Assembly (NCBI GenBank): GCA_963696385.1 | Contig: CAVOKF010000008.1 | Location: 96,001-160,000 of the forward strand | Origin: an uncultured delta proteobacterium | Lineage (GTDB): Bacteria > Myxococcota_A > Polyangia > Polyangiales > Polyangiaceae | Reading direction: 5' to 3' | DNA: 64,000 nucleotides | Shown: positions 15,001 through 18,000 of the stretch, piece by piece | Layout of the letters: every line of letters starts with the position of its first letter | How positions within the stretch are numbered: position 1 is the stretch's first letter | Position numbers: made by a program

Positions 15001-18000
15001 GACTGGCGACTTCACCCGCGGCATGCCCACCCATTCCATCGGCGACGACGTACAGACCGAGTTGATCGTCGATGAAGAAGGCATCCTCGTTCGAGGCTCG
15101 CTTGCGCCCGAGATCGGTCAACGCGTGGCCGGTTCGGCGTAATGGCGCCGGATCGACATCCGCTTGTGTCCCCGGACCGGTTCCCGCGGCGGCGGAGACG
15201 CGAGGCAACTTCACGGTGGGCAGACGGGGGTCGCTCGATGGCATCGTCAGTTCGCCAAACTTCACTATATAGCGTGCGGCCTTGGGGGGTAGCGTTCTCG
15301 AACGCAACTTCGGCGTCGGCCGCGACGAAAGCCACCGTCGGCATGGGCGGGCGGCATGGGCGGGCGGCATGGGCGGGCGGCATGGGCGGGGCATGGCATG
15401 CCGCGGCAGCGCGTCTTGTCCGGTGCGCGTGTTAGGTCACCGTTCCATACAGAACCCCTTAGGTACTATCGTGCGTGCGTGGCTCGAGATCCGCCACTCT
15501 CCCGCGACCGGCTTCTAGGGGCCGACGCCGCGCTCGCGGCGCTGGTCGTCGTGGCGGTCGGCCTGATGATCGTACCGCTGCCGACCTGGGTGCTGGACGT
15601 CTTGATTTCGGCAAACTTGTCGGCCGCGGTCGTCGTCCTTCTCGTCGTCCTGTACGTACCGGATGCGATCGGAATCGCCACGTTCCCGACGTTATTGCTG
15701 CTGACGACGCTTTTCCGCCTTGCCCTGAACGTCGCGTCGACCCGCCTCATTCTGATCCAGGCGAACGCAGGACGCGTGATCAAGGCCTTCGGTTCCTTCG
15801 TCGTGCACGGCAACTACGTAGTCGGTGCGGTGGTCTTCGTCGTTTTGACGACGATTCAATTCATCGTGATCGCGAAGGGGTCGGAACGCGTTGCAGAGGT
15901 CGGGGCGCGGTTCGCGCTCGACGCCATGCCGGGCCGGCAAATGGCGATCGACGCGGAGTTGCGCGCCGGCACCCTGGATGGGCACGAAGCCCGGGTGCGC
16001 CGCCGGGCTCTGCAACGCGAAAGCCAGTTCTACGGCGCGATGGACGGCGCCATGAAATTCGTCAAGGGCGACGTCATCGCATCGATCGTCATTGTCGTCG
16101 TCAACCTGTTCGGCGGCCTCGCCATCGGGGTCGTCATGCGCGGCATGGCGATCGAGGCTGCCCTCCGACGCTACGGACTGCTCACGATCGGCGACGGTTT
16201 GGTCACCCAAATTCCGGCTCTGGTGCTGTCGACCGCGGCTGGCGTCCTGGTGACCCGAGTGGCCAGCGAGGAGGCCGACACCCCGCTCGGCGAAGAGCTT
16301 GCGCGGCAGCTGCTCGGCGTCCCGAAGGCGCTGCAGGTGGCCGGCGTGTTCGTGCTGATGCTGGCCGCCGTCCCCGGCCTGCCGCCGGTGCCGTTTCTCT
16401 TGCTGGGCGTGACCCTGTTTTTCGTCGGGCGCGGGCGCGCCCGGGCCCAGGCCATCGAGCAGAGCTACAGGGCGTCCGAACCGCCGCGCGACCCTCGCGC
16501 GCGAGGGCGCGGCAACGAGCCCAGCTTCGTTCCGCGGGTCGTGCCCTGGAGCATCGAGATCGGCGACGGTCTCGCCTCGATGATCGAGCGCGAGGTTCAC
16601 GGTCTGCGCCCGGTGGCGGTCGAAGTGCGCGAGCGGATTTTCGAAGATCTCGGCGTTCCGCTTCCCGCGCCGCGGATCGGCATTCGACAGGCCCTGAAGG
16701 GGCGCGAAGTCCTCGTTTCGCTTCACGAGGTACCCGCCGCTGCGATCGTCGTTGCCTCCGGAGCGACCGACGAGCAGGCCGCCTCGTGGATTCGCGATCG
16801 CGTCCTGGATCTCATCCGGCCGCGGGCCGCCGATTTCTTGGGCCTTGCCGAAGTTCAGCGGCTTCTCGACGAACTCGAACCGTTCGCGCAGCCGGCCGTA
16901 CGCCACGTCGTGCCCAAGCCGATGAGCCTGGTGTTGCTGACCGACGTTCTTCGGCGGCTCGTCCGCGAGCGGGTGAGTGTGCGCGATCTCGCAGGCATTC
17001 TCGAAGGTCTATCGACCGTCGCGCCGACGGAGAAGGACGCCGTCCGCCTGGCCGAACACGCGAGGATGCACTTGCGCCGTGCCATCACGTTCCGTCTGAC
17101 CGGGGGCATGGCCAGTCTGGACGTGGTGCTGCTCGATCCGATCCTCGAAGACACCGTGCGCCACGGGATCACCCGCACCGCGGCAGGCGCATCCTTGGCG
17201 CTGCCCCCGCACACCTCGCGCGACGTCCAGGCAAGCATCCGGCGCGCCATCGCCGCAAGCGTCCCCGCCGACCGGCCCGCGGTCATTCTGACCCAACCAG
17301 ACATTCGGCATTTCGTCTGGACGCTACTGGAGGTGGACACTCCCGATGTCCGCGTCGTGAGCTCCGCCGAACTCTTGCCCGAGGTCACGATCCGGCCGAT
17401 TGCCCACGCGACGCCGGCATGATCGTCACATCTTTTGACGGACCATCCTGCGCGGGGCGGCGCCGCTCCGCAAAAATAGCTGCTTTGCCTCCTGCTGCAG
17501 CAGGGGATGCACCCTCTTTCCGCCGAGGAACATGCCGAGCAATTGGGGGCTCATCTCGAAAAGCTTCTTCAGCGCTCGCGATGCCCCCTTCATGTCCCCG
17601 GCTCCGGTGCACGCAAAGGCTCGCGCGCGCCACATTTGAACGCGCATCTCGGCGAAATCCGGATCGTCCGGATTGAACACGTCGAGCAGCTCCACGGCCT
17701 TCTTTCCCTGCCCCGTCCGGCCCCACGCTTCCCCGGCCACGGCTGCAAACATCGCGCGGGTCTTGGGCTCCTGCTGTTTGCCAAGCTCGATCTTGTCGAT
17801 GAGCGAGCGGGCCTCCTGGATGTCGCCGAGCTGCAAGTGCAGGCTGGCGCGCAGGCACCTCACTTGATCCGCCATGGGGGTGATTTGCCTACCGAGATCG
17901 ATGGATTCGAGCGTCGCGAGCGCCTTTTTGGGATCCTGCTGCATCTCGAGCTGTGACCGCGCGATCACGGCCTGCACGTCGCCCTTTTTGAACTGGGTCT

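Follow-up and report, generated by a model that had tools for sequence, protein, structure and literature searches.

A needle-less, non-flagellar type III secretion core scattered over ten chromosomal loci in Polyangiaceae, with an export gate lacking subdomain SD2

Does a gene for the export gate of a T3SS (type III secretion system) that stands alone on the chromosome still belong to a secretion machine? The question is raised by sctV, which was found without any adjoining T3SS gene in the window analysed here, a stretch of 64 kb (contig C8, 96001-160000) from an uncultured member of the Polyangiaceae (G000; 6.94 Mb in 8 contigs, 96% complete). The gene occupies a single open frame on the forward strand at 15398-17422, open from the ATG codons at 15356 and 15398; the coding model prefers the GTG start listed in Table 1. 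Its product scores 636 bits against the SctV model TIGR01399 and 554 bits against the FlhA model, both below the curated cut-offs. Besides the PP2C-type phosphatase and the TPR protein, ddl and smc also occur as neighbours of sctV. The TPR neighbour was considered as a part of the machine and not counted, its match to the SctY model being weak and generic.

Table 1. Features of the sctV locus (window positions) and of the partner loci outside the window (contig positions)
Feature	Position	Strand	Remark
PP2C-type Ser/Thr phosphatase, divergent neighbour of sctV	14390..15265	-	homologue at 21/32 sctV loci, a count that paralogues may inflate
Candidate -10-type element TACTAT/TATCGT, 6-9 nt upstream of GTG	15464..15472	+	inferred
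sctV, export-gate subunit, 647 aa	15479..17422	+	GTG 15479 start; SctV model match
FHIPEP-region motif of SctV/FlhA, conserved, intact, residues 133-160	15875..15958	+	motif check
SD2 site, subdomain missing from SctV	16745..16810	+	residues 423-444 replace YscV 437-503
TPR protein, convergent neighbour of sctV	17426..18592	-	22/32 sctV loci
sctJ	C8:175974-176825	+	solitary locus
sctS	C8:542083-542340	+	solitary locus
sctU	C8:699264-700310	-	start overlaps obg stop
fliO-sctR	C5:24967-23931	-	paired locus
sctO, 159 aa	C5:254044-254523	+	tenth locus, found from YscO-like relatives
sctN	C5:450578-451879	+	3 nt after dnaJ
sctT	C5:1462675-1463409	-	solitary locus
70-aa ORF and sctL	C4:137504-136651	-	paired locus
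sctQ	C4:about 255938-257113	+	solitary locus

The genome-wide survey's note had described a second T3SS core, apart from the flagellar cluster, with nine genes at nine sites among housekeeping genes. All nine are present there as intact frames and fully scattered; the count rises to ten loci with sctO, which the note had reported as missing. None of the ten frames is broken, and the sole surviving pairs are fliO-sctR and the 70-aa ORF-sctL. The non-flagellar T3SS core of Abby and Rocha (SctN, J, Q, R, S, T, U and V) is thereby complete. The T3SS model outscores the flagellar one, as had been claimed, for SctV, SctR (214 vs 165 bits), SctU (204 vs 183), SctN (555 vs 528), SctT (60 vs 36) and SctQ (66 vs 53), and SctJ, with 102 bits, is of the lipoprotein type without a match to FliF. 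SctS scores 82.2 with the FliQ model and 78.8 with its own, whose cut-off it nonetheless passes, and SctL ties at 33.9. The curated T3SS cut-offs are passed by SctR and SctS only. The Walker A motif, GERGRE and the arginine-finger region of SctN are intact, as are the gate motifs of SctV.

The sctO gene was reached through relatives. The Pfam YscO-like profile matched a solitary gene of G234 (32.1 bits vs a cut-off of 27) and, more weakly, genes of G254 and G023, and these three led to the gene of the present genome; the same TPR gene adjoins it here, in G234 and in G254. A five-row profile built without the present sequence recovers it at E 4e-13 and also matches G249; two genomes without the system gave no match, nor did G240, so that two of five genomes were matched. 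The Pfam FliJ profile found no SctO anywhere in the family. The 70-aa ORF lies just upstream of sctL in 12/12 family loci, in the place of SctK. It has no Atlas match and resembles weakly the N-terminus of the protein preceding sctL in other families (hhalign 10.8%, E 0.003), and its designation as an SctK/FliG remnant is by position alone. fliO precedes sctR in 8/8 family loci.

Profiles and queries for SctI, SctP, SctW, SctF and SctD gave no match in this genome, although fast-evolving parts can be missed by such searches. Three profiles were used for SctI, which is present in Bradymonadia-type genomes and in family f9; SctF, SctW and SctD were sought with single reference queries, and the numerous FHA proteins are indistinguishable from SctD. 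The note, too, had reported no needle gene and no SctD. Since the first SctO, SctI, SctP and SctK profiles found nothing here in spite of the presence of sctO, other absent parts may have been missed rather than truly be lacking. The two secretins of the genome lie in contexts that fit PilQ and GspD, and no dedicated SctC was found besides them.

A first alternative is that flagellar export genes of the organism's own lineage survive here as spares or remnants. The presence of fliO and the equal or better scores of SctS and SctL on flagellar models speak in its favour. Against this, a separate flagellar cluster at C8:452-487 kb carries its own flhA, flhB, fliP and fliI, SctJ is a lipoprotein and not FliF, and fliO occurs in both Archangium T3SS loci and, according to passages on FliO in Myxococcota T3SSs, in both systems of M. 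xanthus (PMC12403147). The trees decide against it as well. In concatenated alignments of V, R, S, T, U and N, the flagellar and non-flagellar proteins separate with 100/100 in the careful LG+C20 tree (26 rows, chosen from the 45 by omitting long branches and near duplicates) and with 100 SH-aLRT in the 45-row tree, a quick version; many rows fail the composition test. Union of the dispersed set with the flagella of its own order is rejected (p-AU 1e-54), and so is union with the long Myxo locus (T3SS*; p-AU 9.9e-8, about 1e-7), both groupings having been named after the first trees had been inspected. None of the flagellar traits looked for (FliF MS-ring, linked rod or hook genes, place in the flagellar clade) is displayed by the dispersed set. 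A flagellar origin is hardly conceivable on these grounds, and the note's second, non-flagellar core stands.

Within the non-flagellar clade, the dispersed Polyangiales set forms one clade (100/99) with the short Myxo locus, T3SS(2), as its sister (98/98) in the 26-row tree. This sisterhood, between two long and GC-biased branches, was not recovered in the 45-row tree, where the dispersed set lies at the open base of the clade, or in the FastTree trees, where that base is without resolution. In the 45-row tree injectisomes are nested, with the long locus and an Acidobacteriota cluster as their neighbours (99); in the 26-row tree they are not nested in needle-less systems, with 83/91 the opposite way. 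The placement as a non-flagellar, single Polyangiales clade that is not sister to T3SS* therefore appears reasonably firm from these alignments, and the suggested sisterhood with T3SS(2) is not firm and unstable. The needle-less core that the note described is borne out; owing to the AU rejection, the set is not to be equated with the predatory T3SS*.

The scattered set is kept across the family. A full-length sctV match with at least 47% identity is present in 56 of the 91 Polyangiaceae genomes, this one included. In about five others the match is partial or divergent, 16 are without any, and the remainder mostly show the flagellar type only; about one third, large complete genomes among them, are without the set. 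These family counts are descriptive and not tests, as kin are not independent. In 14 sctV-positive genomes picked for low contig number, non-flagellar R, N and U were found in 14/14 (N partial in G225), J, Q and L in 12/12 tested, and S and T in 4/4. R, N, U, J, Q and L are all absent from the five genomes without an sctV or flhA match (G235, G242, G253, G268 and G116), and G269 and G207, without an sctV match, have copies only within flagellar clusters. The T3SS set is thus all-or-none across the family. In nine of the 14 genomes none of V, R, N and U has a flagellar counterpart, so that the set is kept also without flagellar export genes; the survey had pointed to genera without flagellin, and its claim that needle-less systems are not confined to Myxococcales is supported. 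For two relatives, the gene positions given in the survey were obtained again, in G234 and G240. In the single-contig G254 the genes lie at 1.07 (R), 1.22 (T), 1.75 (S), 4.24 (U), 4.50 (V), 4.76 (J), 8.14 (N), 9.91 (O), 10.92 (L) and 11.10 Mb (Q).

Fast evolution, scores mostly below curated cut-offs, loss from many genomes, and partial sets in families f12, f13, f16 and f6 with the queries used could be taken to indicate a decaying relic, or single genes retained for unrelated jobs. Such decay is quite improbable for the set as a whole, in view of ten unbroken frames, joint presence and absence, neighbours conserved across the whole family, and dN/dS values of sctV well below 1 (0.06-0.22 in seven pairs of the Polyangiaceae clade by Nei-Gojobori, four pairs being near saturation), and sctV is subject to purifying selection. 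The genes very probably encode a real, selected, non-flagellar complex. In RNA libraries sctV was seen only partly, on contigs of relatives, with shares of 0.05-0.11, possibly as DNA, which implies neither transcription nor its absence.

The gate protein itself is modified. SD2, an insertion in subdomain SD1 that spans YscV residues 439-492, binds chaperones according to passages of PMC9163089. Between two anchors that enclose it, YscV has 84 residues, FlhA 82-85 and both Myxo loci 84; the same anchors are 39 or 40 residues apart in 27/27 rows of the Polyangiaceae clade, so that SD2 is absent. The protein of the present genome is about 45 residues shorter than YscV in this region. A model predicted from a 19-row alignment (pLDDT 89.5, against 36 from the single sequence) resembles CdsV/YscV (TM 0.82-0.87) and also matches FlhA, and its SD1 strand passes directly into the next helix without SD2. 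Short forms recur in other Polyangia families that have SD2-keeping relatives, so that SD2 was lost several times. Deletion of SD2 from MxiA did not abolish secretion, as stated in parts of PMC9163089 and of bioRxiv 2020.11.20.391094. SctU of the present genome carries DPPQ in place of NPTH. Loss of NPTH was rejected as a hallmark of the set, being confined to G000, G254 and G240; as 11/14 family genomes retain the motif, the SctU switch may still work in most of them.

The scatter that the note had described for Polyangiaceae is true of the family but not special to it, and forms the end of a gradient across Polyangia and Bradymonadia-type genomes. No other core gene lies within about 9 kb of sctV in 40/40 class-level regions (L123-L162), which were chosen as best matches and not randomly and are shorter at contig ends, nor in the sctV regions of families f27, f41 and f52; flagellar and injectisome reference regions in the same comparison show visible clusters. 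Both Myxo loci of Archangium are clustered; published descriptions of gene content served to label one of them long (T3SS*) and the other short (T3SS(2)), M. xanthus itself being outside the genomes compared. The Bradymonadia-type f27 groups in the tree with loci bearing the names Lujinxingiaceae and Microvenator. In 4/4 of its single-contig genomes the genes form four blocks with megabases between them (J-L-N, fliO-R-S-T-U, V and Q), the first being I-J-K-L-N-O in the three genomes with genes listed. Families f7, f9, f11 and f18 retain fliO-R-S-T-U as well as L-N, and their J, V and Q lie separately; f15 retains fliO-R-S-T and L-N, and f4 retains fliO-R and S-T. In f12, f13, f16 and f6 the queries used did not reveal several parts or revealed highly divergent forms; in f13, V and R are very divergent, and with these queries N, U, J, Q and L were seen, if at all, only within flagellar clusters. 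The lineages of f13 and G240 look decayed. The gradient accordingly runs from clusters in Myxococcaceae over about four blocks in Bradymonadia-type genomes and at least five in other Polyangia families to ten loci in Polyangiaceae.

The housekeeping surroundings of the scattered genes are themselves conserved family-wide. dnaJ adjoins sctN in 5/5 loci, an M50 peptidase adjoins sctL in 12/12, obg adjoins sctU in 6/13, and epmA is near sctS in 3/4; for dnaJ, M50 and epmA these smaller counts lean the same way as the percentages given for the order by the survey (33, 47 and 32%). The obg-sctU overlap and the dnaJ-sctN gap are junctions of the translational-coupling type. A TAnnnT element 5-10 nt upstream of the start was seen at 12/41 V, J and fliO loci of relatives, compared with 2.9 in shuffles and with 276/2054 genes of the present genome. 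This excess hints at leaderless housekeeping promoters, and the element before the sctV GTG may possibly be one. Upstream of the T3SS genes no sigma-28 promoter, no sigma-54 promoter and no common spaced motif was found. A solitary gene for a FliA-like sigma factor, a candidate regulator, lies at C5:1404 kb.

The likeness to Myxococcus raises the possibility of a predation module resembling T3SS*, recruited on prey contact and delivering lytic effectors via a Tad/Kil pilus or another secretin. The needle-less anatomy is shared with T3SS*, as described in passages of PMC12075869 and PMC10433427; raw scores are higher for the long Myxo locus than for the short one in 6/8 proteins; and cpaB occurs in 20/29 family carriers and in 4/4 Bradymonadia-type genomes. 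Yet a joint clade with the long system fails the AU test, 9/29 carriers are without a cpaB match, this genome among them, and 9/19 non-carriers possess cpaB. The genomes with cpaB include that of the organism's own genus. Neither cpaB nor tadB/C nor a TadA-type ATPase was found in the present genome, its two secretins are of PilQ and GspD context, and neither LcrH-type chaperones nor small repeated proteins such as the long Myxo locus has were found beside any dispersed gene. T3SS(2), moreover, reportedly has no part in killing (passages of PMC10196010 and PMC12403147, after Thiery 2022). Tad/Kil and the dispersed T3SS are uncoupled, and a partnership in some species is possible; the absence of a partner, as the survey's note had it, holds for this genome only, given the cpaB count in carriers. 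A predatory role for the set is unlikely on this evidence, though it deserves to be kept in view.

Among the described systems, T3SS* (MXAN_2434-2464) is likewise built on a core of J, L, N, O, Q, fliO, R, S, T, U and V and has neither needle nor secretin; it differs in being clustered, in its sctI, FHA protein, FliG_C-bearing protein and TPR chaperones, in a full SD2 and in its Kil pilus partner. T3SS(2) (MXAN_5643-5654) is likewise described as needle-less and secretin-less in the relevant part of Abby and Rocha 2012 (PMC3459982), and shares with the dispersed set an SctJ without recognised SctD, a fliO-like gene before sctR and a long SctQ; in contrast, it forms one 9-kb cluster with sctI in Archangium, has no adjacent sctN, and keeps SD2 and NPTH. 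The needle-less Bradymonadia T3SS (PMC11509652; PMC7188933) is also chromosomal, outside Myxococcales and split over about four loci megabases apart, but retains the blocks I-J-K-L-N-O and fliO-R-S-T-U as well as SD2; the split is not described in the passages seen of these two papers. The scattered injectisome of Chlamydiales, also vertically inherited and chromosome-wide, is placed at >=4 loci in the passages of PMC3459982, whose authors link the scatter to constitutive expression; three of those loci carry core genes and needle and secretin are complete, unlike the ten loci and missing needle of the dispersed set.

What such a complex does may be approached from its parts. The gate proteins SctR, S, T, U and V, FliO, SctJ, SctN, SctO, SctL and SctQ are all encoded by intact, co-occurring genes. 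FliO is an assembly chaperone of the gate and SctJ a lipoprotein ring; SctN is the ATPase, SctO its stalk, SctL the stator and SctQ the C-ring. By analogy with known T3SS architecture, the products would assemble as a single complex which, driven by ATP and proton motive force, moves unfolded proteins over the inner membrane and no further. Since rod, needle, second ring, ruler, gatekeeper and dedicated secretin were not found, the cargo would end in the periplasm or be passed on to an outer-membrane pathway of general use (T2SS, a pilus secretin or vesicles). With SD2 lost and an SctU cleavage motif that can be dispensed with, export would seem to lack the ranking of substrates by chaperones that is known from flagella and injectisomes. 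Lying within housekeeping operons, the genes would be expressed steadily and without regulation, and selection for clustering would then vanish. A constitutive inner-membrane translocase is, on balance, the best reading of these sequences; the mechanism as a whole, a vertically inherited, needle-less, non-flagellar T3SS translocase with a broken-up operon, would seem to have slightly better than an even chance. The dispersal suggests that the machine has been turned into an everyday cell function.

The same losses could also fit a non-secretory membrane role, such as an ion-conducting complex or a platform for membrane tubes (the 'CORE'/nanotube idea). The loss of SD2 and the sporadic loss of NPTH strip features of substrate handling, and neither a substrate nor a chaperone nor an outer conduit was found. 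Such a role is nevertheless improbable, because ATPase, stalk, stator and C-ring, all of them kept, have intact motifs and occur together with the gate, as protein export requires.

Passages of the literature place the known T3SSs of this phylum mainly elsewhere. Abby and Rocha 2012 (PMC3459982) report Myxo systems in Cystobacterineae only, and PMC12428579, PMC10196010, PMC11821767 and bioRxiv 10.64898/2026.07.10.737566 mainly in Myxococcales/Myxococcia, to judge from the sections consulted. In corresponding parts of PMC11509652 (Wang et al. 2024), Polyangia are stated to encode sctV and sctR and Bradymonadia to have a needle-less T3SS, and T3SS is listed for Bradymonadales in PMC7188933 (Wang et al. 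2020). The passages searched, mainly of open-access main texts, contain no description of a scattered T3SS in Polyangia. The ten-locus dispersal and the SD2-less gate thus appear to be new for a needle-less Myxococcota T3SS, which is also wider in distribution than reported; detection by gene cluster would miss genes spread over ten loci.

A wider proposal is put forward tentatively, with a modest chance of being right: that in Myxococcota the needle-less T3SS would be a translocase of ancestral origin and vertical inheritance that serves housekeeping and adds to Sec and Tat a third way of exporting proteins over the inner membrane, fully domesticated in Polyangiales with each subunit expressed from a different host operon and the chaperone dock shed; that injectisomes may have arisen within this radiation, as the 45-row tree has it; and that the scattered systems may be a living step between flagellum and injectisome. 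If the reading of the set as a translocase holds, a flagellum-injectisome intermediate would be common in an abundant soil group, a stoichiometric machine of at least ten parts would be kept without an operon, and a gate without SD2, elsewhere a laboratory mutant only, would have been made repeatedly by nature. The graded series of cluster, four blocks and ten loci would provide a test bed for operon persistence, and the dispersed set a minimal natural T3SS for asking what a needle-less core exports, a question that stands equally for T3SS(2).

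A needle-less T3SS is found as a cluster, together with fliO and TPR chaperones, in Bryobacteraceae/Bryobacterales of the Acidobacteriota (loci L071, L080, L105 and L216), and the gene order there is the same as that of the long Myxo locus (T3SS*). The Archangium copy of the long locus (L212:10219-18074) carries five 72-aa genes that are nearly identical to each other, and relatives of these occur in Corallococcus and Bryobacteraceae loci; their products are candidate T3SS* substrates or filament subunits.

In one group of records named only 'bacterium' (L082:5847-12008, L083:7190-12046 and L104), secA is directly followed by a solitary sctV, and in G295, a genome of this group, the remaining T3SS genes lie on a different contig from sctV. 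In family f13 (L150-L155, L226, L227 and L248), sctV and fliO-R-S-T are strongly divergent, and the queries used turned up no further T3SS parts; the set is either a further reduced system or one in decay.

Features around sctV and the flagellar cluster of the genome under study (G000)
Feature	Position	Strand	Remark
Short tandem repeat	window 15305-15400		GGCATGGGCGGGC-like units; spacer between PP2C-type phosphatase gene and sctV
Second repeat-rich stretch	window near 18440-18590
smc	window 18619-22243	-	two frames, break near 21240
Complete flagellar cluster	G000 C8:452000-487000		glycosylation genes behind cluster

Comparison with relatives' contigs revealed a one-base difference from the window at 21313, inside smc, and the frame break is probably an assembly indel. 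The frameshifts in two flagellar genes of G000, fliI (about 466.7 kb on C8) and flhA (478460), are therefore doubtful as well. Flagellar clusters of this type are common to many Polyangia genomes.

A Trb-type conjugative module with TrbB, C, D and E-like genes is located at G000 C4:23000-28300, and is probably an integrated element.

In families f11 and f7 (L301, L311, L313 and L314), a FliA-like sigma factor gene adjoins sctJ. The G000 gene most similar to it stands alone at C5:1404009-1404617 and scores 110 bits, as compared to 77 for the flagellar fliA. The solitary gene may encode a regulator of the T3SS and form an eleventh locus of the scattered set.
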